Assembly (NCBI GenBank): GCA_021735645.1
Contig: JAIPGP010000006.1
Coordinates: 3,634-67,633, forward strand
Direction: 5' to 3'
DNA length: 64,000 nt
DNA from: Candidatus Cloacimonadota bacterium
GTDB lineage: Bacteria; Cloacimonadota; Cloacimonadia; Cloacimonadales; TCS61
Part shown: positions 1-49,277 of the stretch, in pieces
Numbering within the stretch: position 1 is the first letter of the stretch
Layout of the letters: each line of letters begins with the position of its first letter
Position numbers and translations under genes: made by a program
Notes under the pieces: model-generated
Told to the model about the DNA's origin: nothing
Database searches by the model: none
The model's input: only the letters and a program-made list of their open reading frames with translations

Positions 1-3000
1 TAAGAACCAGTTCCGTCCAGAACTACAATATCACCTTCATAAACTTCCTGATCTTCTCCAGCATTTGCCACAGGTGGAATATTTTCACCAGCCCCAGTTA
101 TTGCTGCTATTGGTAAAAGATTTGGAGGATAACCAATATCACCACCAGGATTAGTTAAAGTTGTATAGAAAACTGTATATATTGTATCTGCACTTGCATC
201 AAATACAAGAAAACCTACTGTTTCTTGCGACTCGCCCTGGATATTTATAGTTACAAGTGATTGACCACCTTCCTGACGAACATAACCTACTCCGCGACAT
301 TCGTCATTTACAAATGCACCTACAATATCTCCTATATTTGCAGGTTGCCCATCAATCGTAACATTTCCATAAGCTACTGTACTGTTTGTGAGATTAATCG
401 CAGTCCATCCAGGACCGTTATTTGCATTAACAACGGTTATATCAGATACTGATGTCACAGAATCTTCGACAGTGAATTCTATCGTCTCAACTACATTAGT
501 GGTTAATGATGTACTAAATGTTACTTCAAAACCAGTTATCTGTACTCCTATATCTACGGAAGGAATAGCACTCAAAATTAATTCATCTCCATCAACATCA
601 GAAACATAATTACTGAAATCTACTACCAGTTCTTCTCCCAGAATAAATGATATCGTTTCCGGAAGATTAATTACAGGTTCGTCATTTACTGGAGCAATAT
701 TTACTACAAAATCATCACTTACGCTATATTCGGAATCAAATGCTTCTACCTGGACTGCAGCTGAGCCATTCCAGTCAGCTACCGGTGAAATTGTTAAGAT
801 TTCTCCAGATAACTCAATAACTATCTGAGTCTCATTAGAAGTAATCTCGTATGTTAAAACATCCCCATCAACATCAACAATGTATTCTGCTAAATTTATC
901 ACAAATGGATCAAAATCTTCCAGAACGTCATAATCCAGAATATTCTCTACTATTTCCGGTGCGTCATTTATGGCGGTTATAGTAATCAATAAACTATCAC
1001 TAACCTCTTCACCATGTCCATCATTTGCTGTTACTACAAGCTCAGTAACTCCATTCCAGTTTAATACTGAAGATATAGTCAAGATATCTCCAGCTATCGA
1101 AGCAGCTACTTCCAGATCATTATATGCAACTGAATAATTCAAAACCGGGTCATTAGCATCACTGAAATGATTACTCAGAATGATGTTAAAATCATCAAAA
1201 TCCTCATTTCTGGGATAATCAAATAAGGGCAAAATCACTTCCGGAGAATAGTTTATTACATTGATGCTTCCCGATGTCAAATTAACAATCTCTGTGGTTT
1301 CATAACTAAATTCTGAAATATCAAGAGCAGAAATCCCCGCTGCTAAAGAGTTGAAATCAATCTTAATCAAAGCACCAACACCTTCAAGTGCTACTACTGA
1401 AGTTGCTGTAACTACGATATTATTGCCGTTATTTATGATATCTACCTCGGCTGATTCGGAAATAGTCTCTGCTAAGGAATACCCGATATATTCAACAAGA
1501 GAATTATCAAAATTCAAGGTAAAGCTGTAGCTGTTTACATCCCAGGCAAGTACAAGAGGAGTAGTTGAGACAATTGCTGTTCCAGAATCACCCAAATCAA
1601 TGTCTATATTATTTACTGCAATTTCTGATTCTTCCAGATTCCCAACCTGGCTGGAAACTGTAACATTCCAGGTAAAATCAGCTGTATATTCTCCATCATA
1701 AACTTCACCTATAACTATAAAATTACCAATCCCAAAATCATAGTCAAAGCTATTCAGTGCTGAACTGCTCTCCAGATTGTCATTTACATACCAATTATAG
1801 ATCAAGAGTGTATCATCTACATCTTCGGCTGTAATATCAAAAGTAATATTTATTGTAGTTGCCAAAGTATCTATCGTTTCATAAACATCTGGTAGTAAAG
1901 GGTTGTTGGCTATAATTACCGGTGCATCATTAACTTCTGATACAATTACATTGAAAGTCTGCTGGATTGCTCCACCATTATTATCATCAGCTGTCACACT
2001 TACTGTAGAAGTGCCATTCCAGTTCAATATTGAACTGATTCTCAGATAGGTGACATCTACGATCTCGGCATTAATTTCAGTATTTTCGAAAGTTATGTCA
2101 TAAGTTAATACATCACCATCAATATCTGTAAAATAATCATCCAAATTGAACTGGAAAGGATTGAAATCCTCAGAAACTTCATAATTGGTGATAACTTGGG
2201 ATACTTCAGGAGCATCATTTTCTGGTGTAACTGTAACAGTAAATGTGTCAGTCACAATCGCTCTATAATTATCATTTGCCGTTACTGTCACTTCTGTTGT
2301 ACCAAAGATATTTGCAATTGAGCTGATAGTCATTTCATTACCATTAATAGTTATCAATACTACAGCTTCATTATAATCTGCACTATAAGTTAATACATCA
2401 TCATTTGCATCTCTAAAATGAATATCAAGATCAATTACAATATCTTCAAAGTCTTCAAGTGAATCCCTGTCTGCCAATTCAAGAAAAACAACAGGAGCAA
2501 AATTCTCATATTCAATCGTAATGCTACCATCAGCAAGGTTTGTAATTTCATCAACTCCAAGTTGGAAATTATTCAAATCAAGAACCGTGTTGCCATTATT
2601 TGCAACTGGTGTAAATGTTATATATAATAATGCACCAGCACCACTGATATCTTCTGTACTTGTAAATTCAATGTAAAGTGAATCAGTTGAATTTGTTACA
2701 TTAATACTGCCTGGTTCTGAAATTGTCCCTGTAGTAGAATAATCTGTATAACTCACTACTGAACTGTCGTAATTTACAGATAAATGGTAACTGTCTATAT
2801 TCCATGCCGCTGAAATACCGGATTCTGTTTCAATAGCAATTTCTACTGGATTAACCTGATTTGTAGAATAATCACCAATAGAGAAATCAGTCTCTGATAT
2901 AGGAATTGTATAAGCCGCTATTGGTAATAAATTATCTGGTGATCCAATTTCATTTCCAGGACTTGTTATTGCTGTATAATCTACATTATAAGCCTGATTC

Positions 3001-6000
3001 GCACTGGCATCAAATACCTGGAAGTGGACCTGTTCAAACGCAATACCCTGAATGTTCATCGTCACTATTGTTCTGCCGGCATCATAAACCACTTCCTGAA
3101 ATGCCCGACATTCTTCACCAACAAATGCTCCTACGTAATCTCCAATTCCTGCCAGGTTATCATCAATAGTAACCAGCCCATAGGCAGTCGTACTATTCGT
3201 ATATATTACCAATTCCCAGTCTGGCCCTTCTGTTACGATGATTTCTACGTTATCACTTGCTTCCAGTGAATCATCACTAACTGTGAAAGTGATTTCCTCC
3301 ATCCCCGTCCAATCAACAGGTGCAGTAAATACAACTTCTAATCCACTAGTGATACCAACTGATATATTAGACGCTCCTGTCCAATTCAAAGATAATTCTG
3401 TGTTTGCACTTTCCACATCACTGATAAAATTGCCCAGGTCAATCGTTAAACCATCTCCATCATTTACAAGTATCGACATATTCTCTGGCAAGTCTATGAC
3501 TGGTCGATCATTTACAGGAGTTATTTCAATTTCAAATGTGTCACTTACTGCCGCAAAGTAACTATCTTCAGCAATGATTTCAATAATGGCAGTACCATTC
3601 CAGTTTTCTACTGGTGAAATTGTTAAAATTCCATCTTCTATCAGATATCCCACCTCACCACTTTGAATATTAGCTGAATAAGTCAGCGTGACATCATCAA
3701 CATCATCAAACATGCTATTCAAGTCAATTGTAAATTCATCAAAATCTTCTATCTTGCTGAAATTCTCAATTGGATCAATTAATACAGGTTCATCATTAAC
3801 TGCTGCTACTGTCACCTGTGAGACATCACTGATACTCTCTCCGTGACCATCATCTGCTGTAACTGTAAATTCTGCGATTCCATTCCAGTTTAAAACTGAT
3901 GAAACTGTTAATGTGTCATTACTTATAACTATTGCTATTTCAGCAGGATCGTAGACAGCAGAATAATTTAATTCTGCATCATTGGCATCACTGAAATGAT
4001 TACTTAAGATAATCTGAAAATCTAAGAAATCCTCGTTCCTGTTATAATCAAACAATGGCAAACTAACTACTGGGGCATAATTCACTACTGTCAAAGAACC
4101 ATTTGTTAAATCGCTAATATTCGTACCTTCATAATCAAAATTTGAGATAATCAAATCTGAAGTACCGGCAGCCAGACTGTTAAAGACAAGCTTGATCAAA
4201 GCTCCACCAGTATCAAAAACATTCTCACTTGTAACACTTACTCGAATACTATCTACATAATCATCTACCAGTATTTCTCTGCCCTCGGATAAAGTGTTTG
4301 TTATTTCATATCCTGTATAATCAACTAAATCACTATCAAAACTTAACGTGAAATTATAACCCGTTACTCCCCAGGCTGGTGCCAGTGGCGTGGTTGATAC
4401 TGTTACTGTCCCGGATTCCCCCAGATCAATTCCTATATTGTTTACTGTTATTGCCGCATCCTCTAGATTACCGGTAACACTAAACACAGATACATTCCAG
4501 GTTATGCTTGCCGTTTCCAGACCGTCTGTTACTTCACCCCTCACAGTATACTCACCAATCCCAAAATCATGATCAAAGTTAAAAGCAGATGAACTTAACT
4601 GCAAATCTCCATTAATATACCAGTTATAGGTTAATGTAATATCATCAACATCTGAAGCAGTAAGTTCAAAAGCAATGTTCGTGTCTACCTCTAATGGATC
4701 CAGGGTTTCATATACATCTATATCCGCGGGTAAATAAGATATAATCACTGGCCCATCATTAACTGGCTCAACTATTACATCAAAACTTTGATCTGTTAAA
4801 CCTCCATTACCATCATTAGCCGTCACAGTAAGTGTTGCTGTTCCATACCAGTCAGCAACTGAACTGATCCGAAGAGATACATCTTCAATTATTTCGGCTA
4901 ATACCTCAGTGCTATCAAAATTTACTGAATAACTCAATACATCTCCATCCACATCAGAAAAATAGCTGCTCAATCCAATCTGGAAAGGCAGAAAATCCTC
5001 TGCCCTGTACGCATCTGGAATAGCCGTCACAATAGATGGATCATCATTTTGCGACTCAACCGTAACAATAAATGTATCACTTACGGTTGCCCGATAATTA
5101 TCATTAGCTGTTACGATTACTTCCGTTGTGCCATACTGATTAAGAACAGAACTGATAGTCATTTGACTCCCGGCAATATCGACATTGATTTTAGCATTGT
5201 CTAATGCTGCTGTATAACTAAGCACATCACCATTTTCATCACTGAAATAGTTATTAAGATCTAATACAACGTCATCAAAATCTTCTAATAGAGGCTGATC
5301 AGGTAACGGCGGATCTTTAACTGTAGGTCCAAAATTCTCATAGACTACTGTGATGCTTCCATCAGTTGTACTAATGTTCTCACCACCCATTGAGAAATTA
5401 TACATATCTAAATTACTAAATCCATTATCTGTCACTGGCATAAAGGAAAGTTTTAATAAATCTCCACCACCACTAATTATTTCAGTATTACTATAACTAA
5501 TCTGCAGTAACCCTGCGATATCATCATTAACCGTCAAAGTTCCACCTTCTGAGATTGTTTCAGCTAAATTATAACCTGTATATTCCACCACACTATCATC
5601 GAAACTTAACGAAAAACTATACTCATTTATCAACCAGCCTGCCGAAATACCTGTTTCTGTTGAGATCGCCACTTCTACTGGTGTTACCTGATTTACTGTA
5701 TAATCTGTAATATAGAAATCCGCATCAGCCAAAGGTATTGACTCTGCCGCTATTGGCAATAAGTTGTCAGGAGGTTGCCCAATTGAAAATCCAGGATTAG
5801 TCTGGGTAAAATATTCTACATTATAAACCTGATTGGCACTGGCATCATAAACCCTGAAATTCACGGTCTCTACTGTGCCACCCTGAATATTTATTGTTGC
5901 TATTGTGATATTCTCTTCCACCTGTAATTCTACTTCCAGCATTCCACGACACTCTGAACCCACAAAAGCTCCCACATAATCTCCAATACCGGCGGGTTGA

Positions 6001-9000
6001 CCATCAATTGTTACTTCCGTATAGGCAATTGTTGAATTACTGTAGGTAATCGGATTCCAACCAGGTCCCTCTGCAACAATCACTTCAACGATATCATAAG
6101 AACTATCAGTTTCGTCGGATACTGTAAAAGTTACATTCTCAGAACCAGTCCATCCCTCAGGGGCTGTAATTGTAACAACCGAATCTTGTATTGTAATCAT
6201 GAGATTAATATTACCACTCCAGTCAATTGTCAACAAACTATCAGCACTTTCTACATCACTGATAAATCCTGACATATTCAATTCTAACCCATCACCATCG
6301 TCACTTAAAAAAGCTACATTATCCGGTAAGTTGATTACCGGAGCATCATTTACAGGAGTTACATCGATATTGAATTCATCAGTTACACTGGCTCCGTTAT
6401 CATCTTCAGCTTTCACCTGCACCGTTGCAGTACCATACCAGTTCTCTACCGATGAAATGGATAAGATACTGCCTGTTATTTCAAGTGCTAATTCTCCGTC
6501 TGTAAGAATACTGGTATATGTCAATGTATTATCCTCAACATCAAAGAAAACACTGTCTAATTCTACTGTGAAAGTCGCAAAATCTTCCAGCCTTGTCTTG
6601 TCTTCTATCTGACTGACGATTACAGGTATATCATTATCTGAAATTACAGTTACTAAAAATTCATCCTGGACAGATTGTAAGTATTCATCAGTGGCAGTTA
6701 CTGTCACTGATGATTCGCCAAACCAGTTCTCTATAGATGATATTGTTAATTCACCGGTTGCTTCATTTAATGATACATAAATTTCTGTAGAATCATTGCT
6801 TATTACATAGCTCAAAACATCACCATTGGGATCACTAAAATGATCGTCAAGATCAAAACTGAAATCTGCAAAATCCTCGGTTCTAGTATAATCTTCTATA
6901 ATCGCGCTCACTACCGGAGCATCATTTAATATTGTTATTGTTCCATTAGTTATTGTTGTAATAGGTGTTTCATTGAAGAAGAAATTTGATATTGTCAGTA
7001 TTGTAACTCCTGGCTCAAGAGTACTGAATGTCAATCCGGCTACCGCTCCTGCTCCTGTCAGATCCCCACCAGTATAACTAACTGAAATACTGTCTCCATA
7101 ATCCATTACATCAAAGTCCCCACCAGAGGATACAATACCTTCTGATATTGATATGTAATCTACAAATGCGCTGTTAAATCCCAGTGTAAAACTAAATGAG
7201 GTCACTCCCCAGCTTTCATCCAGATAACTTGTCAATATATTTGAACTGAAATTATTCCCGTTATGAACTGTTTTGTTTAGAATTGAGATCTGTGACTCTT
7301 CCAAGGTGGCACTGCCTACATAAGCAAATACATCCCAGATTATTACAACTGGATATTCTCCATCAGAAACTGCTGCTTTTACTGAATAATTTCCATTTTC
7401 GGTGAAGGTGTAGCTAAAGCTGCTGCTTATTTCTGGCTGTTCGTCTTCATCCACATACCAGCTATATACAAGACTTTCCGGTGCTGTATCAATATCTTCA
7501 ACTGTTATACTAAATAGTTGAAGGCTATCTAACGGTGCGTTAATATTTAAATCTTCAGGAAAATAAGATGTAATCTCAGGTGCATCATTCACCGCTGTCA
7601 CTATCACTAATACACTGTCACTTGCTACTGCTCTTCCCTGACTGTCATCTACTGTAAAGGTGATTATCTCACTGCCATTCCAATCGGGTACAGAACTGAA
7701 ACTTACTTCAAATCCATCAATTATCACTATGATGCTATCGTTACCAGTTGCACCTAAACTTAAGACATCTTCATCAATATCACTCACAAAAACTGAAAAA
7801 TCTTCTACAAGCGATTCATCTTCCAAAAATGTTAAGGAATCCGGTAACGCTATCACTGGTATATCATTTACAGGAGTTATTTCAACCATAAATGTATCTG
7901 AAACAGTTACATTGTAAGCATCTTCAGCTGTAACCACTACTTCTGTGCTGCCATTCCAGTTTTCTATCGACGATATTGTCATCTCTGAGCCATCTATTAA
8001 AATTCCTATTTCTGTGGCTGTATATTCTGCACTATATAATAACACATCTCCATTACGATCAGCAAAGTGATCATCCAGATCAATTACGTATTCTGTGAAA
8101 TCCTCAGGGTTACTCTGATCCGGTATAGGCAATTCTACAGTTGGTGCAAAATTCTGGTAAGTTATTGTTACTGTCCCTGCCTGAAGATTCGTTATTCCGG
8201 TAGTGTTATACACAAAATTGGCTGGTGTCACTAACGTCGTCGTATCTGCAGTTATACCTTCTACAATATCAAAACTTACTGCCAGCATTTCTCCCACATC
8301 AAATATAAAATCAGGTGACGGTGAATTAATAGTAAAACTTACTACTCCCAATTCTTCATCTATTCCAATTCCTGCATCTTCCACTACGGTATCCCCGCTT
8401 GAATAACCACTATAATTAAGTATTGAAGCATCATAGAGCAGATCAAATTCTATGCTTGTTACTTCCCAGCTTAAACCAATTCCTATATCATTAGTAACAT
8501 GTAATGTTACTCCATCCTTCTGATTACTTGCGGCATCACTCACACTGATCGCACTGTCAGTTATTAAAGGAGTCTCTCCATCAATATCAAATGCTCCTAT
8601 TGCCACGTTGGGAATTGTTACAGTTGTAAAAGCTACATCGCAGATTATTCCCTCAGAAGCGTCATATACTTTGAAATTTACTTCTTCAGCAGAACCACCT
8701 ATCCCTATCACTATTGTCAAATATGCTATTCCTTCTTCTACATTAACTTCCTGAAGTCCCCGGCACTCTCCTTCATAGAATGCCCCCACAATGTCTCCGT
8801 GCCTTGCCATTGTGCCATCTATTGTTACTATACCTAGAACTGTTCCAGATGATGTATATGTTACGCGATCCCATCCGGGTCCATTTACTACTGTTACCAA
8901 TACCTGGTCGCTTACTATTGAACGCCCAGCCTGATCATTAACATAAAATGTTAAATTCTCATAACCAGTCCAGTCTGGTCCAGCCTCAAATAATACTTCA

Positions 9001-11759: not shown

Positions 11760-11892
11760 AAAACGCCTCCCATATATATCTTTTCTTTTTTTATCGCTCA
11801 ATAATATTTTCATTTCTTTTCTCTTCTTTTTCTTATAATTCATTTGTTCTCTTTTTATATTTTATCCTGATTCTAGCTCGTTTTTTAATATT

Positions 11893-11936
11893 TTCCCGGT
11901 CTCAAAAGCTCCGGGAACGGCTTAGCCGCTCCCGGA
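11893..11936 (-). terminator. Intergenic GC-rich stem-loop (terminator or mRNA-stabilising hairpin) between the two scaffold genes
   Basis: Minus-strand tccgggagcggc-taa-gccgttcccgga followed by gctttt, just downstream of the stop at 11948. An alternative pairing ttcccgg/ccgggaa is also present. Confidence 0.7.
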
Positions 11937-11947
11937 TTATTATAAGG

Positions 11948-20900: not shown

Positions 20901-23900
20901 AGTATGATTTCAGCAAATCCTTCTGCATTTGCCTGTCCACTGTAAGGACCATTTGCCATTGCTACTGGATTATCATTCACTGATTCAACTATTATCAGTA
21001 TGTCATCACTGGCAGATAATCTACTCATTTCGTCTTCTACCATAAAGGTCAAAGTCTCTTCACCAAACCAGTCCTCACTAGCTGTAAATATTACTGTATA
21101 ACCTTCTATAGCTGCAGCTATTTCTGTACCACCTTCTACTGTTAAGGTTAGCATATCTTCATCTATATCATTGAGGTATTCTGTGAAATCTACTTCCAGA
21201 CTACCATCTTCAGCAAATATAAAACTATCTGGTAATTCGATCTCCGGTGCATCATTGACCGGATTGACTATAAGATGGAATGTATCAGATGCCTGCTCAA
21301 AACTATCACTCACAAATATTGTGATATCAAGCTCACCATTCCAGTCTAAAACCGATGATAAAGTTAAAATACCATTGCTGATATCTATTTCAACGGCTTC
21401 AGGATTATACTCTGCCCAGTAATTATAAAGATCGCCATCCGGATCCGTAAAATAATCCGCTAAAGTTAACATCTCTGGAGCAAAATCCTCATCAAGTTCC
21501 ATATCAGGAATATCATTATATACATAAGGAGCATCATTTACGCCTATCACCAGCACTTCAAAGGTATCACTCACAAATGCCCTGTCCATATTATCAGAAG
21601 CGGTGACTGTTACTATTGCTGTGCCTGCCCAGTTTTCCACACTTGCCAGATACATCATATTATCAGTAAAGGTTACCATGATCTCTTCTGCATTGAAGTC
21701 TGCTGTATAAGTTAATACGTCTCCATCAACATCACCAAAGTTTTCGCTTAGATCAAATGAAGTCTCTGCAAAATCTTCAAAAAATTCCTGATTCTCAATT
21801 TCTGCTACTACATAAGGCGCATCATTCACACTCATCACCTGCACCTCAAAAGCATCAGCTACAATGTCTCTGCCTATTTCATCAGATGCTGTGATTGTCA
21901 CTTCTGTTGTTCCATTCCAGTTTTCCACGCTGGCTAGATAAAGAATGTTATCTGTTATTGTTACTATGATTTCCTCATTATTGTATTCTGCACTATAACT
22001 TAATACATCTCCATCTACATCACCAAAGTTTGCATTCAGATCAGCATTTACTGCTATTTCCTCGAAATCTTCCGCCAATTCCTGATCTGCCAGTTCTTCT
22101 AATATATAGGGAGCATCATTCACTGCTTCCACAACTATATCTACATTCACTTCCGCGACAGCTCTACCCTGGTTATCTGTTACGCCAATTACGATTGCAT
22201 CTGTACCATTCCAGTTATCTCCTGCACTAAAAGTGATCACAAAACCTTCAATCGCACTGATGATATTATCCACATCAGCCAGATACATTTCTAATTCGTC
22301 GTCATCTACATCACTTATATATTCAGTAAAATCTACCTGAATACTTTCATCTTCATTGAAAATGATCTCTGGCTCAGCATAAGTGAATACTGGAGCATCA
22401 TTTATGGCATTTACGATTACCAGTACATCATCGCTGGCTGTTAAACGCTCCTGATTATCATCAACAATAAAAGTCAATGTTTCCATACCATTCCAGTTTT
22501 CTGCCGCTGTAAAGAACACTACACCACCCATTATTTGTACTGTGATGTTCTCATTGCCCGTAACCGTTAAAGTAAGATCATTCAGGTCAGGATCAGAGAT
22601 ATAACCTTCCCCGATAAAATCAACTCCCAGATTCCCATCTTCATCAAACATAAAGTAATCCGGTAATACGATCTCTGGGGCTGCATTGCCGTTTTCCACC
22701 GTGATCACTACTTCGTCTGCCTCACTCCAGGCTTCTCCATCACTTACTATCAATGTGATCGTATAAGGTGTCGATTCGCTTACATCCGGTGCCGTGAAAG
22801 TTGGAATCGCTGAGGTCGGGTCGCTTAACACTATTCCCTCAGGAGCACCCCATAAAAATTCCAGATCCGGAATGAATATTGTTGTTACTGTAAATACATA
22901 AGGATCAAATCCGTCGCCAACCTGCGTATCAGCCACAAACGCAACTTCACCCTCTACATCATAAACCATGTCTGCACTGGCATCATAGTATTTGAAGGTA
23001 ACTACATCTCCGCTGGTCGTATTACTGAAAATCGCCGGCATATAAAATGTTCTGTTGAAATATTCCATGTATTGAACGGTGTTATCACTCTGCTGTGCTA
23101 TGCCTCGGCATTCATCACCAACAAATGCTCCTATCATATCATTTAAATCATTTATCTCTACTCCATCTACTTCCACTACTCCCCAAACTGTAAAACTATA
23201 TTCATAATCATGATAATCAAATATCCAGTCTGGTTCACGGCTTACCTCGCCATCTGGATCATAAGAAGCCGTTCCATTGAGCTGTACCAGATCTCCTTCT
23301 ATTACTGTCTGATCCTCTCCCGCATCTGCTACTGGAGGTAAATTGCCATTTTCTACTGTGATCACTACTTCATCAGCTTCACTCCAGCTTTCGCCGTCAC
23401 TCACTATTAATGAAATAGTGTAATCTGTTGTCTCTGTTACTTCCGGAGCTGTAAATGTAGGCATCACCGCCGTTACATCACTTAGCACTATATCTAATGG
23501 TGCTGTCCAGATAAAATCTAAATTCGACGTAATTACCGTCGATACTTCAAATACTACCGGATCATTTCCATCGCCATAAGTCATATCGGCTACAAAATCT
23601 AATGTCCCTGCTACTTCATATTCCATATCTGTTTCTGCATCATAATAAAGAAAATCTATCGTCTCGCCACTGGTTTGATTGCTATATACTTCCGGCAGGA
23701 ATATTATATGATCAAAATACTGGGTATAATCAAATACATTACCATTTGCTTCACTGGCTATTCCTCGGCATTCTCCATCTACAAAACAGCCCAGTATTCC
23801 TGTCGTTATATCCACTTCCACCCCATCCAGTTCTACTATTCCCCAGATCGAGCAGCTGTATTCATAATCTGCATAATTAAATGACCAGTCTGGTAAACGG

Positions 23901-26206: not shown

Positions 26207-26252
26207 GTATCCCTCCTGTTAATTTTTCTTTTTTTTTTAAAAAACTTTTCCC

Positions 26253-26320
26253 TTTTTTGGAAGCACCCTCATGCGTCCAAAAAAAAGAAAAATACCAGGG
26301 CGGACAATTGCCCGCCCCGG
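26253..26320 (-). terminator. Terminator-like hairpin plus a second hairpin between the dockerin gene and the 4752-aa scaffold gene
   Basis: Minus-strand ccggggcgggc-aatt-gtccgccctgg followed by tatttttc. A second stem ttttttgga/tccaaaaaa lies at 26253-26284. Confidence 0.7.
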
Positions 26321-26333
26321 CATTAATTCGCTC

Positions 26334-29300
26334 TTATTTGAGCATGATCATCTTATGAGTCTCATTAAGTTCGCCTATCTTCACTTTGTAGAAATATACT
26401 CCTGAAGATACCGGACGATTGCTGTTGTCTTTACCACTCCATTCAAAGTAATATGTTCCACCTGCTACCGTCTCATTTACAAGGCTGTTTACTAACTGAC
26501 CCTTTACATTATAAATACTAACTTTCACTGGTGTGTTATCATTTGCCACAGCCAGCGCGATTGTAGTACTTGGATTAAACGGATTAGGATAATTGCCCAA
26601 TACTGCATTTACTACTGGGACACTTTCCAGATCCTCTACATAATATGTGTTCTCTGCACTGATTCCATTGCTGGTTACAGTCATTACGAATTCTCCGCTT
26701 TCTGCCAATTTCTCAAATGGAATTCGCAGGAATTCGCCACTGATTGCTTCTGCATTTGCCAAAGCTAAAGCATTGCCATTTACAGCGTGCAGATAATCTA
26801 CTACTGGTTCATTGAAACTGATCAAATCCGTTTCTGTGCTTACACTGAATCCATAAAGGTCGCCAGTTGTACTGAATACTAATTCACCATTCTCTACCGT
26901 CATGGTCACTTCAGCTGCTGGAGTCTCAATTCTGGCTTCTACTGGGAATTCTGTGATCATACCAACTGCATACTGTAATACAAGTGCGGCATCATAAGCT
27001 TCAGGATCACCATTGCCATCTACGTCTCCTGCGATTAATTCCCAGGTCCATGGTAAAGGAGCTCCCACTGGATTCATACCTACTGTGAACTGAAGAATGT
27101 TAGCTGCATCAAACGCATCTACTATCTCGTCACCTGTTACGTCGCCATACATATAGGCTGCACCTACTGTCATGGTGATTGGTACTATGATCTCTGTATT
27201 ATAAAGATCATTGCTGGTGATCATGATCTCACCCATCATCACATCGCCATCTACAAGACCGGTTGCATCAAAGTTCAAGGTGTGCATATCCGCTCCAGCA
27301 CCTACTGATACTACTCCATCAACCATCATGTCGCCACCAAAGGTTACCCAGGGGTTGATCGGAATTGTATAATCTACTACCAGATAGGGAGGATTAGCTT
27401 CATTCCAGCCATCAATTAAAGTATAATATGTAGTTCCAGCATCACGTGGTGATGCTCCAACTGCAAACCAGTCATTTGACAAAGCTGCCTGCATATCTGC
27501 ATTTGCTGTTGTTCCAAGTGGATACATATACCAGCCAGGTACAAAAGTGCTGGATTCATTATTATATGAATAAGCGATACCTGAAGGATTACCGGCAATG
27601 ATATGCTGCTGCAAAGTTGCTGCTGCTGTTGTCAGTGGATCAAGTGTACATGGTGTTAGTGACCAGTATGGGAAATATGTGTCATTTACATAAACATTAG
27701 CTTCAATGCTATTTATAATTGCCCCATCTGGAATTCCAGAGACATCAAACATCATCCAGCCATTTTGGGTATCAATAGCATTTACAGCACTATTAGCTGT
27801 GAAAGCTGCACCATCAGTACTACCTGTCCAGTAATCTACACTCTGTGGCATTACTTCTGCTACGGCACGACCCTCATAATAAATGATCTCAGCTTCATAT
27901 TCCAGATCAAGATCACCAAGATTACCAATACTTAAATCATAATCTGCCATACCATCTACTGGTACCATTACATCAAATTCCATTGGATCTACTGTGATCT
28001 CAGCTGTTGGAATGCTGCCGGTAATGGTCAAATCTGCGGACACTACTGCTGATGCGTCTCCATCTGTGAATACTATGTCAGCAAAGTATGTGAGACCTGG
28101 AAGCTCGATAGCATTAAAGGTTGCTGTGATATTTACACTTGCTCCCGGTGCTAAGGTTCCATTTGCTGGATCTATGGCTAACCAGGAATTAGCAGGGCAT
28201 AATTCATATATTGCTACCGTGTAACTGCTCTGATTGAGAGAGCCGATAACAAAAGTGCCATCAGCATAATCTAAAGATGTGAAAAGTCCACCAGCTATAT
28301 CACCCACAGCACCTACATCTTCAAGTACGTCATGAATCACGCCTGTCTCTAAACCTGTTGCGATATTATACTGAACGATCACACACTGGTCACCCAGACC
28401 ACCCTGGCTGAATCCATATAAATAGGGTCCGCCATCTGAATAGTTATCATAAGCCAGTCCATATAAAGATACCCAAACTGTACCTATTGCAAAACTATCC
28501 ATTATGCTACCGTCGCGACCTACCAGAGTAATATCTGTGCTCCAGTTATTTACCCAGAATGCATCATTATCATCATCATAAGCAATTGCTCTAACAGCAA
28601 CTGGGGAAGCTATGGTTGAAACTAAAGTCTGAGTCTCAAAATCCATCTGCCAGATGCTGTTACTGGCTGCTCCACCATAGAAGTATTGTCCATCATAAGC
28701 TAGGTCACGAAGACCTGATACTCCGGGAATTGAGAAGGTTTCAATGAAGTTTCCATCAATATCAAATTTGTTGATGAGTGCGCTTGCCCAGACAGCTGTG
28801 TAGAAATAAGTACCATCAAATTCAATACCGGCTTGACTTACGATTGTTGGGTCAGCAATAAATGTATCCAGTAAATCCCACATATCGCGAGTTTCTGGCA
28901 CTTCATACTTCTGAGTGTGGTTCGGAGTGACATCTGCATCATCACTGATCAAATCTGCTGGAATTGGTTTCGCTACTATGGGACTATTCCGAACCTGCTC
29001 CTGAATAGAGCCTGCCCAATAGAAATTGGCATCTCCATCATTGCTCAAAGTTATAGTGTGATCTGAGGTTAACCCATAATCAAGTGTCTCACTCAATTCG
29101 GTTGGTGTTACGCTTACATCAACTGTTCCAAGCTCTACTATTACATGATTACTCTCTGGTGACTCACCTTCATCATATTCTGTTGTTACATAATACTCAT
29201 AAATTCCAGCATCAAGGCCAGGATCATTATAGGTTGTCTCTGTTACTGTGGCTAATAGAACGTTATCTTTATACACTTTGTAATTACCTGTGAAATCACG

Positions 29301-32300
29301 AACACTTTCGCCAATTCCTGCCAGACTGAATTCTACTCTGCTGTCTACTTCTATTGGAGTTGGATTCCAGGTTTTGGGCTGAGCTAATATAAGGTCTTCA
29401 TTTCTGTCACCTGAGATTACGCCCCAGATATTCCAGTTATAATTAAGACCGTACAATAAATTCATCGATCCCCAGGTTACTCCACCATCTTCTGACAGTA
29501 AATCTCCGTATTCACTTACGGCTGGTCCTGCATCACAACCGGCAGGATAAGGATTGACATCTGTGAAGGATACATAATAACCTATCCATAACTCTTGGCT
29601 GGCATCTATCATTACTGGTGTATTCAATTCTATATTGTTCCAAGCCATTCCTGTTGGTGTATAACCCTGCTCCAATACTACATTAGCAGCATTATCTCCA
29701 CTCCATACATAAAGTGTCATTACATCAGGAAGATCATTGATATAAACTGTAACGTTATCCATTATCATTCCGTCATATACTGAAAGTTCTGCCGGAGTAA
29801 ATCTCGCTGCTACTGTAAATGTTCCACCAGATGCCATACCTATCGCATCTGCATTGGTCATATTATCCCAGTGAAGCGCGTCTGCTGGCAGGAAATTCGG
29901 GGCTGTCCACTCAAGACCTATATCGTAATTGTTAACTGTAGCGGTCAGGTTCAGAGGGGGTAACATGTTTATGTCAAGTGCAAAGTCCTGGGTTGCTACT
30001 TCATCAACTATAATTGTTACTGGTGCCATCGCCCCAATATATCTTGGATTTGTGCAATATGCATCATAAGCTCCAGTTAATATATCTGGAATCATATAAT
30101 ATCCAGTTGCATCAGTCATGCCCATGCTTTCACCACAAGTAACTAAGGCACCAGATACCGGATCACCACTAAAGGCATCAGTTACTGTTCCTTCAAGGCT
30201 TCCCATATCCGGAGGAGGTAACAGATCAAAATGAACTTCATAGTATGGATTTGGATGATAAGTTGAATATCCTTCATGGCAGATATAATAGGTACCTGCG
30301 GGTACTACAACTGTGTAGCTGAGATCATCCTGACCTATCCAGGAAGCCATTGTGTTGCCTGAACCCCAGGTGCTGCAGCCATCATCATCATAAGCTACCC
30401 GAGTATAATTGCTGTCATATAAGTTCATGTATGTATCAAATTCAGAACCGCAGGAATGTAATTCCATCGTACCTGGAGTATCCAGCTCAAACATAAACCA
30501 AATATCCTCGCCTGAATGTGATCCTACTAATCCAAGTGCAGTACTGTCATCTGTGTAAAGACTTATATCTCCTGACATAAAGTAGGGGAATGCGTCAATT
30601 ACAATTGGGTTATCGATCGTATTTCCAATATCTGAGAATACTTCCAAAGCAAAGTTTACGGTCGTTGTCTCATTTTCAGACACTTCCACATTAAGCTCCG
30701 AAGCTGGTAAATATCCCTCAGCTGTTGCTGTTACGGTATATAAACCTGATTCCAGATTCTCAAATAAATAATATCCGGCCGCATCTGTAATTTCCTGTAA
30801 TCCACCGGCTGATACTATTGCTCCTTCTATCGCTGCTCCACCATCAAGCGCTGTTACGGTTCCCTGCAGGTTACCAAAGGTTGGTGGTTCATTTGCTTCT
30901 ATAGAAATATCAAATGCTGTGAATTGGGGAGCTGGATAAGTTGATATAACTATATAATAGGTATTACCCATAGTCATTATCACTTCTTCCAGGAATGGAT
31001 TGCCGGCATAACCGGTTGCTGAAGCTATACATACTGCTCCTGGATCATCTACAAATCCCTGAATTACAAAAAGTCCTACCCAGGTTGCGGTGTTGGTCAA
31101 GGTAATATCTAAGGACATGTTCTCTGTCGGTGTATATGAAAATACAAAATCATCACCATTCATATAACTGCTGGTACAAGCCATTGTGCTGTTATAATCA
31201 TCGCCATAACCCTCGGTTGTCATTCCGGTCTGAATAAATGGTACGCTATCAATAATATAAGGATCTGCACAACTTGTTCCGGCTGTCTCAAATACTTCCA
31301 GAGCAATATCAACTGTTGTCGTCTGTCCTGCTAATATTTCCACTCCGAATTCTGTATATGTGGTATAACCATAAGCTGTTGCCACTACATCATAAAATCC
31401 TGTTTCCAGACTCTCAAAGTAATAATAACCAGCTGCATCTGTTGTTTGACTGAAACCTCCAGCGGTTACAACTGTTCCTTCAATCGGAAGTCCTGTACCG
31501 AAATCTGTGATCGTGCCATCAAGACTGCCCATGTCCGGAGGAGGAAGAAGATCAAAATGAACTTCAAAATATGGATTCGGATGATAGGTCGAATATCCTT
31601 CATGACCTATATAATAGGTTCCTGCTGGAATTACTGTATCTGCTATCCAAGAAGCGGCACCACTACCTGATCCCCAGGAACTGCAACCATCATCATTATA
31701 AGCGATACGTGCTAAATTTGAGTCATATAAATGAAGATAAGTATCAAATTCTGATCCGCAACTGTGAAGCTGCATTGTGGCTGGTCCATCAAGCTCAAAC
31801 ATAAAGTAAACATCTTCTCCTGAACGTGATCCCACTAAGCCTGCACCTGTACTGTAGTCCGTATAAAGGCTTATATCGCCAGACATGAAATAAGGAAACG
31901 CATCGATTATGATTGGGTCTTCTATGGTATCACCAATAGGATCAAATAATTCCAAAGCAAAATCCTGGGTAACCGTCTGACCAGCCAGAATCTCTAAACC
32001 TGGAGCAGCTCCATTAAAATATCCTGCATAAGCTGCTGTCACATTATAAATTCCTGTCTCTACATCAGCAAAATAATAATATCCAGCTGCATCCGTTAAC
32101 ATGGAAAGTGTCCCTACTGTTACTGTAGCTCCTTCTAAGGGAGCTCCGGTATCAAGGTCTGTTACCGTGCCATCAAGATTTCCAAATTCCGGAGGTCCAC
32201 CACCGGTGATGGTTAATACATAATCTCCATAACTTGTGCTATAGCCATATACCCTGGCATAATAAGTGCCTGCTGGAAGTACATCCCAGAATAAAGCACT

Positions 32301-32645
32301 CTGCACTCCATAATAATCATCATTGTATCCAAGATAAGTAGCATCATCACATTCATCCCAAACTTCCAGCTTGGTGTCAAATGTTGAACCTGCTAAGGAT
32401 ACTTCTACATCATAATAATCCATATCAAGTACAAATTCATACCACACCTCATCATAGGCTTCAAGGGTAGAACCTGTCACAGCAGGATCATTGATGTTCA
32501 AATAAGGCAATGCCTCGTCACATGTGTCTCCAGGTTCCCGACTACTACTCTGGGTCCTGGGAGTTGCCGGGGACTCAACCTTGGCGGATAAAGCAATACT
32601 GCTTAATAACATCAAGGCTAAAACTACTAATAAAAACTTTTTCAT
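26334..32645 (-). CDS. 2103-aa secreted dockerin-bearing multidomain protein (PPC-like domains, 4 carboxypeptidase-regulatory-like domains, FN3-like, beta-propeller, type I-like dockerin, FlgD-Ig/T9SS-like C-terminus)
   Basis: Signal peptide. FDTKLEVW/FDTYLHLYD...YNDD PPC-like motifs. G(N/S)L.GT(V/I)TD repeats. Propeller-like segment AGIEFDGTYFY...RDLAYDGQYFY...RAIAYD. Duplicated Ca-loop dockerin YGDVTGDEIVDAFDAANILQ...GDVDGNGDPEAYDAALVLQY (about 27149-26938). C-terminal NYPNPFNP...IYNVKGQ...SSGVYFY. Confidence 0.92.
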   Translation of the reverse strand: MKKFLLVVLALMLLSSIALSAKVESPATPRTQSSSREPGDTCDEALPYLNINDPAVTGSTLEAYDEVWYEFVLDMDYYDVEVSLAGSTFDTKLEVWDECDDATYLGYNDDYYGVQSALFWDVLPAGTYYARVYGYSTSYGDYVLTITGGGPPEFGNLDGTVTDLDTGAPLEGATVTVGTLSMLTDAAGYYYFADVETGIYNVTAAYAGYFNGAAPGLEILAGQTVTQDFALELFDPIGDTIEDPIIIDAFPYFMSGDISLYTDYSTGAGLVGSRSGEDVYFMFELDGPATMQLHSCGSEFDTYLHLYDSNLARIAYNDDGCSSWGSGSGAASWIADTVIPAGTYYIGHEGYSTYHPNPYFEVHFDLLPPPDMGSLDGTITDFGTGLPIEGTVVTAGGFSQTTDAAGYYYFESLETGFYDVVATAYGYTTYTEFGVEILAGQTTTVDIALEVFETAGTSCADPYIIDSVPFIQTGMTTEGYGDDYNSTMACTSSYMNGDDFVFSYTPTENMSLDITLTNTATWVGLFVIQGFVDDPGAVCIASATGYAGNPFLEEVIMTMGNTYYIVISTYPAPQFTAFDISIEANEPPTFGNLQGTVTALDGGAAIEGAIVSAGGLQEITDAAGYYLFENLESGLYTVTATAEGYLPASELNVEVSENETTTVNFALEVFSDIGNTIDNPIVIDAFPYFMSGDISLYTDDSTALGLVGSHSGEDIWFMFELDTPGTMELHSCGSEFDTYMNLYDSNYTRVAYDDDGCSTWGSGNTMASWIGQDDLSYTVVVPAGTYYICHEGYSTYHPNPYYEVHFDLLPPPDMGSLEGTVTDAFSGDPVSGALVTCGESMGMTDATGYYMIPDILTGAYDAYCTNPRYIGAMAPVTIIVDEVATQDFALDINMLPPLNLTATVNNYDIGLEWTAPNFLPADALHWDNMTNADAIGMASGGTFTVAARFTPAELSVYDGMIMDNVTVYINDLPDVMTLYVWSGDNAANVVLEQGYTPTGMAWNNIELNTPVMIDASQELWIGYYVSFTDVNPYPAGCDAGPAVSEYGDLLSEDGGVTWGSMNLLYGLNYNWNIWGVISGDRNEDLILAQPKTWNPTPIEVDSRVEFSLAGIGESVRDFTGNYKVYKDNVLLATVTETTYNDPGLDAGIYEYYVTTEYDEGESPESNHVIVELGTVDVSVTPTELSETLDYGLTSDHTITLSNDGDANFYWAGSIQEQVRNSPIVAKPIPADLISDDADVTPNHTQKYEVPETRDMWDLLDTFIADPTIVSQAGIEFDGTYFYTAVWASALINKFDIDGNFIETFSIPGVSGLRDLAYDGQYFYGGAASNSIWQMDFETQTLVSTIASPVAVRAIAYDDDNDAFWVNNWSTDITLVGRDGSIMDSFAIGTVWVSLYGLAYDNYSDGGPYLYGFSQGGLGDQCVIVQYNIATGLETGVIHDVLEDVGAVGDIAGGLFTSLDYADGTFVIGSLNQSSYTVAIYELCPANSWLAIDPANGTLAPGASVNITATFNAIELPGLTYFADIVFTDGDASAVVSADLTITGSIPTAEITVDPMEFDVMVPVDGMADYDLSIGNLGDLDLEYEAEIIYYEGRAVAEVMPQSVDYWTGSTDGAAFTANSAVNAIDTQNGWMMFDVSGIPDGAIINSIEANVYVNDTYFPYWSLTPCTLDPLTTAAATLQQHIIAGNPSGIAYSYNNESSTFVPGWYMYPLGTTANADMQAALSNDWFAVGASPRDAGTTYYTLIDGWNEANPPYLVVDYTIPINPWVTFGGDMMVDGVVSVGAGADMHTLNFDATGLVDGDVMMGEIMITSNDLYNTEIIVPITMTVGAAYMYGDVTGDEIVDAFDAANILQFTVGMNPVGAPLPWTWELIAGDVDGNGDPEAYDAALVLQYAVGMITEFPVEARIETPAAEVTMTVENGELVFSTTGDLYGFSVSTETDLISFNEPVVDYLHAVNGNALALANAEAISGEFLRIPFEKLAESGEFVMTVTSNGISAENTYYVEDLESVPVVNAVLGNYPNPFNPSTTIALAVANDNTPVKVSIYNVKGQLVNSLVNETVAGGTYYFEWSGKDNSNRPVSSGVYFYKVKIGELNETHKMIMLK

Positions 32646-34337: not shown

Positions 34338-34349
34338 CAAACCTCCACA

Positions 34350-34385
34350 TTTCACGACTTCACGTCTCACGTCTCACGATTTCAT
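34350..34385. repeat. Short heptamer tandem repeat (tctcacg)n
   Basis: tttcacga-cttcacg-tctcacg-tctcacg-atttcat, lying between the M23 stop and the DUF1573 RBS. Confidence 0.6.
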
Positions 34386-37563: not shown

Positions 37564-37597
37564 AAAACACGAACCTGCGGGTTCTTAGTGAATATAA

Positions 37598-37625
37598 CGG
37601 AACCGGAAAATATTTTCCGGTTCCG
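37598..37625. repeat. Perfect 28-bp palindrome between rpsB and tsf
   Basis: cggaaccggaaaatattttccggttccg is its own reverse complement. Confidence 0.85.
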
Positions 37626-37670
37626 AATTACGAAAGTAATTAAACAGATTAATTCTGAAGGGAGTTTAAT

Positions 37671-38264: not shown

Positions 38265-38266
38265 TC

Positions 38267-38983: not shown

Positions 38984-39019
38984 GTTTAGCAGGGGTATTC
39001 ACCCCAAAGGAGTTATATT

Positions 39020-39805: not shown

Positions 39806-39833
39806 AAACCTCCCGCTACGGGAGGTTTTTTTT
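39806..39833 (+). terminator. Rho-independent terminator, probably bidirectional
   Basis: aaacctcccg-cta-cgggaggttt followed by a T-tract, between convergent genes. Confidence 0.9.
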
Positions 39834-48734: not shown

Positions 48735-49277
48735 ATGATGCTCATTAGGAAGTTTTTTTTGTTTCTGCTATTAATTCTATTTATTTTACCCGTTTCTGCG
48801 GCTATCGGCTGGGGAAATTCGGAAATTGTTTTCCTTTCTTCCACAACTGATGATAGTAATCATGTTGGTTCTGGTATTTCAGAAATGATCTTTTTATCTT
48901 CGATGGAGGAGGTTTTTCATATCGGCGAAGGAATTTCTGAGATAGTGCTGTTAAGTTCACTGCATTATGGCGATGTGGATAATAATTCGGAAGTGGAAAG
49001 TCTTGATGCTTCCCTGATCCTGCAATACGTGATAGGATTCGATCCTGCTCCTGCTGCACCTTTACCCTGGGAAGACTGGAGAATCACAGTGGCAGATGTG
49101 AGTGGCAGCGGTTCTATTGGAGCTTATGACGCCGCGCTGATCTTGCGCTATGTGCTTGATTTAATCGATATCTTCCCGGTAGAAGGTGAACCCATAATTG
49201 ATAGAGTAAGGATTGAACAAATGAAACGCGAATTTATTAACTCGCAATACAATAATAATGGAGGAGAAATAAAATGA
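48735..49277 (+). CDS. Small secreted dockerin protein with three G.G.SE..(F/L)LSS repeats
   Basis: Signal peptide; repeats GWGNSEIVFLSS, GSGISEMIFLSS and GEGISEIVLLSS; dockerin YGDVDNNSEVESLDASLILQY...ADVSGSGSIGAYDAALILRY (48966-49184). GGAGG RBS, with TTGACA at about 48604. Confidence 0.88.
   Translation: MMLIRKFFLFLLLILFILPVSAAIGWGNSEIVFLSSTTDDSNHVGSGISEMIFLSSMEEVFHIGEGISEIVLLSSLHYGDVDNNSEVESLDASLILQYVIGFDPAPAAPLPWEDWRITVADVSGSGSIGAYDAALILRYVLDLIDIFPVEGEPIIDRVRIEQMKREFINSQYNNNGGEIK

Follow-up and report, generated by a model that had tools for sequence, protein, structure and literature searches.

Giant cadherin-like scaffoldins and dockerin proteins of an uncultured Cloacimonadota bacterium: probable parts of a non-cellulolytic, cellulosome-like surface system

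Results and discussion

A three-gene locus with two giant scaffoldins

We analysed a stretch of 64,000 nucleotides, hereafter called the window (GenBank GCA_021735645.1, contig JAIPGP010000006.1, positions 3,634-67,633 of the forward strand), from the genome of a Candidatus Cloacimonadota bacterium of lake-water origin (Cloacimonadia; Cloacimonadales; TCS61). The genome comprises 3.77 Mb, is 95.4% complete and is referred to as G000 in the comparison with relatives; labels such as C98 and C110 denote its contigs. The window contains three giant open reading frames (ORFs) on the minus strand, genes 1 to 3, which a first-pass annotation of this DNA had already described as three co-oriented giant genes. 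We think it likely that this locus encodes parts of a cell-surface cohesin-dockerin system that is cellulosome-like and non-cellulolytic, and thus of a kind that has already been proposed for this phylum. Genes 2 and 3 would encode non-catalytic scaffoldins with four and at least nine cohesins, respectively, interspersed with copies of a module that we call ECRG, and gene 1 encodes a protein with a dockerin. The three genes are:

26334..32645, minus strand: gene 1, 2,103 amino acids (aa), with signal peptide, four units of a PPC-like domain plus CarboxypepD_reg, fn3/BACON-like regions, dockerin, a module of ~120 aa and a type IX secretion system (T9SS) C-terminal domain (CTD)
11948..26206, minus strand: gene 2, scaffoldin of 4,752 aa, with signal peptide, four cohesins, six ECRG modules, ~31 cadherin/PKD-like immunoglobulin (Ig) repeats and T9SS CTD
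3..11843, minus strand: gene 3, scaffoldin that is open at the window's edge, with 3,947 aa inside the window and at least 5,158 aa in the contig, reaching the contig's first base

Cohesin modules of genes 2 and 3

An iterative hidden Markov model (HMM) search seeded with the Pfam Cohesin match of gene 2 retrieved exactly four modules of ~130 aa in gene 2 and eight in the window part of gene 3, where the first-pass annotation had counted about four and about eight cohesin-like domains; a ninth copy of gene 3 lies beyond the window. All copies were placed by this search and by a tree, apart from the exceptions stated in the list:

25748..26146, minus strand: gene 2 cohesin 1, group II (also Pfam)
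25349..25747, minus strand: gene 2 cohesin 2, group II (also Pfam)
16937..17335, minus strand: gene 2 cohesin 3, group II (Pfam, 36.5 bits); modelled by itself and in the complex prediction
15962..16375, minus strand: gene 2 cohesin 4, group I, clustering with the gene 3 copies
10956..11375, minus strand: gene 3 cohesin 1
9723..10112, minus strand: gene 3 cohesin 2
8148..8567, minus strand: gene 3 cohesin 3
6915..7307, minus strand: gene 3 cohesin 4
5331..5735, minus strand: gene 3 cohesin 5
4071..4469, minus strand: gene 3 cohesin 6
2499..2903, minus strand: gene 3 cohesin 7
1242..1640, minus strand: gene 3 cohesin 8
C98:3057-3434, just left of the window: gene 3 cohesin 9 (genome scan)

The assignment of these modules was supported at the levels of both sequence and fold. 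Single-seed phmmer searches on the 12 modules in the window gave E-values between 2.5e-9 and 1e-31, with the exception of the seventh copy of gene 3 (4.7e-8). The Pfam family Cohesin (PF00963) scored 75.4 bits on gene 2 as a whole (cutoff 24.1), and when the modules were scanned singly at E<=1, 10 of the 12 matched this family with up to 36.5 bits, namely all four of gene 2 and six of the eight of gene 3 (best E for a gene 3 module 4.1e-6). A profile built from the 12 modules matched the solved cohesins 1g1k and 2vn5 at E ~1e-5, and for a profile of the eight gene 3 modules alone the top seven matches in the Protein Data Bank (PDB) were all cohesins, the best at E 6e-4. The AlphaFold2 (AF2) model of gene 2 cohesin 3 reached a pLDDT of 95.2 and a pTM of 0.89; in a Foldseek search of the PDB with this model, all rows down to rank 49 were cohesins or cohesin-like, with E-values from 8e-10 and query-normalised TM-scores of 0.63-0.84. 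For the copy modelled, the objection raised beforehand, that the domains might not fold as cohesins, therefore does not apply. Because of these E-values and the fold result, chance is excluded, and we conclude that the modules are genuine cohesins. A partial match of the cohesin HMM at aa 4226-4280 of gene 2 was dropped, the region being an ECRG module.

In a tree of the 34 cohesins of the genome, two groups were distinguished. Group I comprises all nine cohesins of gene 3, cohesin 4 of gene 2 and the single cohesins encoded on C58 and C128, and group II comprises cohesins 1-3 of gene 2 together with those on C110, C43, C69, C130, C5 and C24. The existence of two cohesin groups alongside several dockerin subtypes suggests that there is more than one binding specificity.

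Cadherin-like stalks and architecture of the scaffoldins

The gene 2 protein runs from its signal peptide through two cohesins, three ECRG modules with PKD-like repeats and ~19 Ig repeats to cohesin 3, which is followed by two Ig repeats, cohesin 4, ~8 Ig repeats, three ECRG modules and the CTD. Its parts other than the cohesins are:

22952..24760, minus strand: N-terminal ECRG block of gene 2, three modules (aa 483-575, 774-866, 994-1085) among PKD-like repeats (HMM)
17342..22657, minus strand: main stalk of gene 2 (aa 1184-2955), cadherin-like/Big_9/PKD Ig repeats with an xNDxP motif every ~94 aa
13775..15973, minus strand: second Ig-repeat stalk of gene 2 (aa 3412-4144; repeat HMMs and Pfam)
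12305..13720, minus strand: C-terminal ECRG block of gene 2, three modules (aa 4163-4240, 4269-4348, 4558-4634; HMM)
11951..12202, minus strand: T9SS-type CTD of gene 2 (FlgD_ig 48.6 bits, Por_Secre_tail 30.5 bits; cutoff 27 each)

The gene 3 protein is built from a super-repeat of ~940 aa, consisting of ECRG, cohesin, three Ig repeats, cohesin and three Ig repeats, which occurs four times and is followed by an ECRG module, an Ig repeat, the ninth cohesin and seven further ECRG modules up to the contig end. Since gene 3 ends inside a repeat module at this contig end, its C-terminus was not assembled; no overlap of 15 bases or more was found between this end and any other contig of the genome. 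The cohesins are spaced by runs of three Ig repeats in gene 3 and by much longer Ig runs in gene 2.

The cadherin-like repeats around the cohesins, which had been claimed from the letters alone, are borne out by the Pfam scores of Big_9, Cadherin_4 and Cadherin_5, which were 473.7, 371.5 and 354.6 bits for gene 2 and 159.6, 75.6 and 109.5 bits for the window part of gene 3. The numbers of cadherin/PKD-like repeats, ~31 in gene 2 and ~29 in gene 3, are approximate, as they were counted from merged intervals and the 'big' and 'pkd' HMMs converged on the same Ig repeats. Gene 2 contains 20 xNDxP motifs about 94 aa apart, and its composition is very acidic (D+E 19% vs K+R 1.4%). Periodicity and composition fit calcium-stiffened cadherin-like stalks, with rigidity and calcium binding inferred from the sequence pattern; because a cadherin domain is ~4.5 nm long, such stalks could measure 0.1-0.2 micrometre.

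With Pfam at E<=0.01, no glycoside hydrolase (GH) or carbohydrate-binding module (CBM) was reported in any of the three giants, as the first-pass annotation had stated. The only GH/CBM-related entry was Sde0182_C, with a whole-protein score and no stretch that passed by itself, and neither CBM3 nor any other CBM family was listed for the scaffoldins of genes 2 and 3.

Dockerins of the window and predicted pairing with a cohesin

Two dockerins had been placed in the window at 27149-26938 and 48966-49184, and both were found there, the first near the C-terminus of gene 1 and the second in a small secreted protein:

26955..27158, minus strand: gene 1 dockerin (aa 1830-1897), PLPW-TW linker subtype (Dockerin_1 and genome-trained HMM)
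26592..26954, minus strand: module of ~120 aa between dockerin and CTD of gene 1; no Pfam match, equivalent region in 16 other proteins
26337..26591, minus strand: T9SS-type CTD of gene 1 (FlgD_ig 35.0 bits, cutoff 27; Por_Secre_tail 26.0 bits, just below its cutoff of 27)
48735..49277, plus strand: secreted dockerin-only protein of 180 aa (dockerin ~48960-49166; Dockerin_1 36.6 bits)

The dockerin of gene 1 scored 20.4 bits against Dockerin_1 (PF00404, cutoff 22.9) in the whole-protein scan and 25.3 bits in the genome scan. In the latter scan, 33 of the 35 matches were over the cutoff, two only by summing with neighbours in the frame. The two dockerins of the window do share the APLPW linker, the AYDAAL helix motif and the FPVE end that the first-pass annotation had pointed out; the description of these features as unusual did not stand, since they are family-wide. 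The counts in 38 aligned dockerins of the genome were 19 for APLPW, 32 for PxPW, 9 for AYDAAL and 23 for FPVE, and the solved clostridial ScaB dockerin 4uyp_B likewise ends in FPVE. Each of the 38 aligned copies has both F-hand loops, and a profile of these copies retrieves solved type I dockerins with E-values of 6e-16 to 4e-14. The dockerins are thus canonical two-F-hand modules, distinguished only by a linker with PLPW that exceeds those of solved dockerins by 4-7 residues. Their subtypes in the genome number at least three and include a PLPW-ExWR type, the PLPW-TW type of gene 1, a type with a long LPELDPLPW linker and one with a short linker.

In gene 1, dockerin, ~120-aa module and CTD form a cassette of ~280 aa (Doc-X-CTD), which was found with 32-52% identity in 10 of the 11 paralogs with dockerin and CTD among the blastp matches listed. 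No catalytic domain was found in gene 1 by Pfam, and its remaining segments gave hints of PPC, fn3 and BACON that were all below threshold. Gene 1 is thus regarded as a non-catalytic and probably substrate-binding protein.

Complex modelling of each cohesin with each dockerin had been proposed as a check, and one pair was run. Gene 2 cohesin 3 and the gene 1 dockerin, together with two calcium ions, obtained a score of 0.33, compared to 0.01 for the best of three controls; the runs agreed in 100% of the contacts and the pLDDT of the partner was at least 88. The mark passed by this pair is reached by 58 of 80 solved complexes and by 2 of 110 mismatched pairs, and among those that pass, scores of 0.60 or less were obtained by seven of the 80 solved complexes and by both mismatches. 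As cohesin-dockerin complexes have already been solved, the pass may reflect likeness only. The pair stands above its controls with a weak score, and this prediction gives weak support to cohesin-dockerin binding at this locus.

The ORF of the 180-aa dockerin protein overlaps by 4 bp with a gene for an FGE-sulfatase-domain protein (49274-50359, plus strand), which is followed by a C25 peptidase of 1,693 aa with Laminin_G_3 and a CTD and without a dockerin (50540-55621, plus strand). A dockerin frame of 192 aa in the related genome G099 may be the ortholog of the 180-aa protein.

Genome-wide complement, cargo and export

The whole genome encodes 34 cohesins on 11 ORFs according to a genome-trained HMM and the tree. 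A HMMER genome scan gave 35 matches; the additional one, a partial match in a frame of 2,570 aa on C101, was left out of the count. The genome-wide dockerin census that the first-pass annotation had suggested yielded 39 ORFs with one dockerin each, with APLPW in half of the aligned copies as given above and with cargo that consists mostly of peptidases and binding proteins. None of the ORFs carries both a cohesin and a dockerin, so the modules show the pattern expected of partners in trans.

Peptidase_C25 is found in 8 of the 39 dockerin ORFs among the families listed (5 of the 22 that end with the dockerin and 3 of the 17 that carry a CTD), M14 in 4 of the 22, an InhA-like domain in 2 of the 17, Chlam_PMP in three and a lamin-tail domain (LTD) in two. 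Peptidyl-arginine deiminase (PAD), GH18, GH57, CotH and CBM20 each occur once among the same families, which do not include S8 peptidases. GH9 and GH5 gave no matches in this 95.4%-complete genome; the cellulase negative rests on these two families, the search for GH48 being uninformative because its control remained silent. The proposal of the first-pass annotation, a display platform for proteases, adhesins or lectins rather than a cellulosome, fits this peptidase and binding-protein cargo and the lack of GH5 and GH9 matches.

Four dockerin proteins are of the gene 1 type. Gene 1 itself and the copy on C80 have no catalytic or recognised binding domain, the copy on C110 has LTD and CBM20, and the copy on C111 has an InhA-like MAM domain and CarboxypepD_reg. 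The C110 cluster consists of two C25 peptidases with dockerins, the gene-1-type LTD/CBM20 dockerin protein and then a CTD-bearing scaffoldin with five cohesins; another CTD-bearing scaffoldin, with eight cohesins, is encoded on C43. At no fewer than four sites (on C98, C110, C128 and C130), a cohesin gene lies next to a dockerin gene. On C130 (11722-14920), two single-cohesin proteins, one of 154 aa without and one of 345 aa with a CTD, are encoded directly downstream of a dockerin protein of 538 aa, and this set looks like a minimal version of the system.

With regard to export, a CTD was detected with a genome-trained HMM at the C-terminus of 230 ORFs; for a genome of 3.77 Mb, the T9SS secretome so predicted is very large. 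Among the cohesin ORFs, nine of 11 terminate in a CTD; the exceptions are gene 3, at the contig end, and the 154-aa single-cohesin protein. The dockerin ORFs fall into 17 with the cassette of dockerin, module and CTD and 22 that end with the dockerin. A crude hydrophobicity test indicated signal peptides in 20 of the 22 CTD-less and in 16 of the 17 CTD-bearing dockerin proteins, and a lipobox in none of them. The search for the T9SS machinery covered SprA, PorU and PorV, and SprA was found with 449 bits (summed; cutoff 200). The earlier suggestion of export via a T9SS-like CTD is supported for genes 1 and 2, which end in a FlgD_ig/Por_Secre_tail domain in a genome with SprA, while the end of gene 3 is not seen.

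Distribution in related genomes

Of 121 genomes sampled from the phylum, 90 contain matches to the cohesin profile, in 34 of 46 genera, and only five of the 121 have 12 or more cohesin matches. Dockerins were counted in five chosen relatives, with the following results:

G000 (this genome): 34 cohesins (35 in the genome scan), 35 dockerins
G099: 33 cohesins, 39 dockerins
G043: 34 cohesins, 47 dockerins
G088: 15 cohesins, 33 dockerins
G010: 12 cohesins, 4 dockerins
G003, a typical genome: 4 cohesins, 1 dockerin

Cohesins and dockerins expand together in most cases, G010 being an exception. G099 and G043, which represent a congener and a sister genus, have genes 1 to 3 in the same order. The gene 3 orthologs in these genomes (G099:C5 and G043:C50; loci L186-L190) are likewise cut by a contig end. 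As the gene 3 orthologs stop at contig ends and the long repeats seem to break short-read assemblies, scaffoldins of this type are probably under-reported in metagenome-assembled genomes (MAGs). In a set of 1.84 billion representative proteins, the cohesin profile found 3,730 matches at E<=1e-3 and 93 at E<=1e-30, many of them with 5-13 stretches; multi-cohesin giants are thus not unique to this organism.

The ECRG module

The ECRG module comprises ~82-110 aa, in which W, F, Glu-Cys-Arg, F and D are invariant. We counted 86 copies in 19 ORFs of the genome, six of them in gene 2 and 12 in gene 3; the window contains 11. Apart from the gene 2 blocks given above, these are:

5811..6059, minus strand: representative ECRG module, gene 3 aa 1929-2011, used for modelling (AF2) and for the fold searches (Foldseek, VIA)
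11439-11687, 8628-8873, 2976-3218 and 165-407: the other ECRG copies of gene 3 in the window (HMM)

None of the 11 copies matches a Pfam family, apart from one row at chance level, and the best E-value against PDB sequences was 0.63. The AF2 model of the representative copy is a beta-sandwich with a pLDDT of 90.8. Foldseek gave no match at E<=1e-3, the top row being the CBM20 structure 1cqy with an E-value of 2e-3 and a TM-score of 0.35-0.40. A wide VIA search reached a best Z of 7.9, which lies in a commonly reached range, and its rows were transthyretin-like, CBM20/26/41 and pilin CnaB sandwiches. Look-alikes in the ESM Atlas belong to unnamed clusters from Cloacimonadota and Bacteroidota. 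As modelled, the ECRG module weakly resembles a transthyretin/CBM20-like beta-sandwich.

Comparison with known cohesin-dockerin and surface-display systems

The closest known case is that of Ca. Stygibacter, also of the Cloacimonadota (Williams et al. 2021, PMC8542988), for which dockerins on GH18, GH57, S8 and C25 enzymes and a non-catalytic scaffoldin of 3,755 aa that bears tandem cohesins and, to attach it to the surface, a CTD were described. A cellulosome-like complex for the breakdown of protein, starch and chitin, not cellulose, was inferred there. The remark in the first-pass annotation that cohesin and dockerin proteins had been noted in Cloacimonadota, so that their presence might not be new, is borne out by that paper. 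The present system resembles the Stygibacter complex in belonging to the same phylum, in its dockerins on GH18, GH57 and C25 proteins and in its large CTD-bearing scaffoldins (gene 2 and those on C43 and C110). The main text of PMC8542988 describes one scaffoldin of 3,755 aa, whereas the present genome encodes 11 cohesin proteins, among them those of a three-gene locus whose scaffoldins have 4,752 and >5,158 aa and ~30 Ig repeats each. Two cohesin groups, dockerin proteins with and without CTD, M14 and PAD cargo and the ECRG module also go beyond that main text. Conversely, the S8 cargo reported in PMC8542988 is not among the dockerin-cargo families listed for this genome. The words cadherin and carboxypeptidase are absent from the main text of PMC8542988, and its supplements may hold more. 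In the literature searched on cohesin-dockerin systems, as judged from titles and the beginnings of abstracts, giant cadherin-type scaffoldins are not described. The InterPro superfamily label 'CBM2/CBM3' covers cohesins as well, and the 'CBM2/CBM3 domains' of the 2021 paper may be its cohesins.

The clostridial cellulosome shares with the present system the use of many cohesins per scaffoldin and of one dockerin per enzyme. The cohesin fold is that of clostridial scaffoldins such as CipA and ScaB (with the TM-scores given above), and the dockerins have the same two F-hands with near-symmetric helices, although their PLPW-carrying linker is 4-7 residues longer than the clostridial one. Cellulosomal scaffoldins are anchored by S-layer homology (SLH) domains or sortase. 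In contrast to the clostridial cellulosome, the system described here belongs to a diderm host, has a T9SS CTD as its probable anchor and lacks CBM3, and no cellulases of GH5 or GH9 were found with it. Instead of the short linkers of clostridial scaffoldins, cadherin-like Ig repeats space its cohesins. The non-cellulosomal cohesin 2xdh of Archaeoglobus fulgidus has a similar fold (Foldseek E 2.6e-9, TM-score 0.81) with 18% sequence identity to gene 2 cohesin 3, but it is a single archaeal module outside of any giant scaffoldin.

A non-cellulosomal assembly, the 'planctosome' of freshwater Planctomycetes, has been proposed to degrade polypeptides (Andrei et al. 2019, PMC6461901). M14 carboxypeptidases among the dockerin cargo and the involvement of lamin-tail-domain proteins are common to both systems. 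The planctosome comes from another phylum and is simple, its anchor and its adaptor having single cohesins; it has no giant multi-cohesin cadherin stalks, and the passage on it in PMC6461901 does not mention a T9SS CTD. Finally, the system has features in common with T9SS-based surface display. Porphyromonas gingivalis displays its gingipains on the surface via T9SS, and its C25 peptidases carry CTDs. C25 peptidases with CTDs as well as SprA/Sov are also encoded in the present genome, together with PorU-like and PorV-like proteins that score below their cutoffs. Unlike in P. gingivalis, many of the C25 peptidases carry a dockerin in addition to, or instead of, the CTD, and the cohesin scaffoldins would constitute a second, protein-protein layer on the surface.

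Proposed function and alternative explanations

In the cell-surface system proposed here, all three proteins of the locus would cross the inner membrane by Sec, in line with the signal peptides seen. The CTD-bearing proteins would then cross the outer membrane by T9SS and stay on the surface, as is the case for CTD proteins in Bacteroidota. The acidic Ig repeats with their xNDxP motifs may bind calcium and extend as stalks of 0.1-0.2 micrometre, and the cohesins would capture the 39 single-dockerin proteins via calcium-dependent F-hands, as suggested by homology, by the co-expansion of the two modules and by one weak complex prediction. The most likely function of such an arrangement would be to hold protein-, chitin- and starch-degrading enzymes together with adhesive modules on particulate organic matter near the cell.

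Several observations weigh against this interpretation. The C-terminus of gene 3 lies beyond the contig end here and in two relatives, so that neither its CTD nor its anchoring is visible, and the whole-protein scan of gene 3 gave no Cohesin match at E<=0.01, with two of its eight modules failing even at E<=1. The fold evidence comes from gene 2 cohesin 3, to which the gene 3 cohesins are linked by sequence similarity. The only complex prediction gave a weak score. PorU-like and PorV-like proteins were found with 383.7 bits (cutoff 420) and 154.9 bits (cutoff 250), both below the curated cutoffs. The route of the 22 CTD-less dockerin proteins across the outer membrane is unexplained by the CTD, although the genome has two secretin genes, and the 17 CTD-bearing ones fit cross-linking or adhesion equally well as enzyme recruitment. 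Finally, the cargo tallies cover the first 25 of 28 and the first 25 of 35 families, and rare families may be hidden.

The most serious alternative is that the giants are mainly adhesins or matrix proteins by which cells adhere to particles or to one another, and that cohesin-dockerin pairs chiefly cross-link surface-anchored proteins to a mesh or aggregate cells, with enzyme display being secondary. This explanation would account for the fact that 17 of the 39 dockerin proteins have a CTD of their own and that two of them, gene 1 and the one on C80, show neither a catalytic nor a recognised binding domain; the cadherin/PKD-like repeats (~31 and ~29) with their very acidic composition and the adhesin-like Chlam_PMP repeats in three dockerin proteins point in the same direction. 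Adhesion alone, however, hardly explains why the dockerin proteins include no fewer than 12 peptidases of the C25 or M14 families, and PAD, GH18 and GH57 enzymes besides. We therefore regard adhesion as the main role as unlikely, albeit worth serious consideration, and it is compatible with enzyme display, so that both may hold.

Alternatively, the cohesin-like modules could be structural beta-sandwich spacers that have lost the binding of dockerins, with the dockerins acting elsewhere or serving only for stabilisation via calcium. The weakness of the complex score (0.33 vs 0.01) leaves room for this, since, unless there is a strong prior, a pass of this kind is wrong in more cases than it is right, and so do the two of 12 modules that miss Pfam Cohesin at E<=1 and the occurrence of cohesin-like modules in 90 of 121 genomes of the phylum, typically with few dockerins (four and one, respectively, in G003). 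Nevertheless, it is in the same few genomes that cohesins and dockerins both become numerous, their genes are neighbours in at least four places (on the contigs given above) and no protein has both modules, which together make a pure spacer role improbable. A true cellulosome for the cellulose of plant cell walls, for which the fold matches to clostridial cellulosomal cohesins and the resemblance of the dockerins to cellulosomal type I could be quoted, is very improbable given the lack of any GH9 or GH5 match in a 95%-complete genome, the lack of CBM3 in the scaffoldins and a cargo of peptidases, GH18 and GH57 among the families listed.

The surface enzyme-display system favoured here could be elaborated into a hierarchically wired, T9SS-built 'proteolysome' with group-specific cohesins, CTD-bearing adaptors that mesh the stalks, piggyback enzymes and ECRG modules that bind substrate, instead of a simple rack of enzymes; as a whole, this picture is unlikely. 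In its parts, cohesin groups I and II could have different dockerin specificities, and adaptors of the PLPW-TW subtype (gene 1 and its counterpart on C110) could plug into the neighbouring scaffoldin and thereby cross-link the stalks of 0.1-0.2 micrometre to a mesh. The 22 CTD-less dockerin enzymes could be carried to the surface through the T9SS by cohesin partners, or arrive there on another route, and the ECRG module with its invariant Glu-Cys-Arg could be a substrate- or glycan-binding element.

As the concept is already in print for this phylum (PMC8542988), and the locus is a more elaborate example of what is described there, the gain lies in depth and not in a new principle. New in detail are the conserved three-gene locus with its two giant scaffoldins on cadherin-like stalks, the two cohesin groups, the two export classes of dockerin proteins, the peptidase-dominated cargo and the ECRG module. 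Gram-positive cellulosomes are the best-known case of cohesin-dockerin assembly; here, its modules are found on a comparable scale (34 cohesins, 39 dockerins) in an uncultured diderm of the Fibrobacteres-Chlorobi-Bacteroidetes (FCB) group, with predicted anchoring through type IX secretion and a load that consists mainly of peptidases. This speaks for the pairing of cohesins and dockerins as a general principle for arranging extracellular enzymes on particles, and it would help to explain how, in anoxic waters and in digesters, Cloacimonadota serve as primary degraders of proteinaceous detritus. In addition, the locus offers reagents for specificity tests and protein-scaffold engineering, in the form of the cohesin groups, the dockerin subtypes (at least three) and the Doc-X-CTD cassette.

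Gene arrangement and genomic neighbourhood

The three giant genes are separated by short intergenic gaps, 127 bp between genes 1 and 2 and 104 bp between genes 2 and 3. Directly 3' of the gene 1 stop lies a terminator-like hairpin:

26291..26324, minus strand: hairpin of 15 pairs, nine of them GC, followed by a T-run

Because of this strong terminator-like structure, genes 1-3 need not form one operon; a comparable hairpin was not found in the gap between genes 2 and 3. Promoter-like sites at the locus are no more frequent than in shuffled sequence.

On the 5' side of gene 1, at 33273-35152 on the minus strand, the window encodes a DUF1573/HYDIN-like Ig protein of 270 aa and an M23 peptidase of 256 aa. 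An ORF of 845 aa at 40850-43387 has no Pfam match. The window also contains the housekeeping cluster rpsB-tsf-pyrH-frr. RpsB supports the assignment of the host: its best match is from a Cloacimonadota MAG (89% identity), the top 18 rows (64-89% identity) are from MAGs named Cloacimonadota, Cloacimonas or Cloacimonetes, save for row 14 (an untitled 'uncultured bacterium'), and matches from other phyla start at 55% identity. The region of this cluster and its flanks (36799-39577, plus strand; 39832-47895; 55625-57951) includes genes of polysaccharide synthesis, namely those for GT2 and GT4 glycosyltransferases, a Polysacc_synt flippase, a methyltransferase and a glucuronyl C5-epimerase-like protein.

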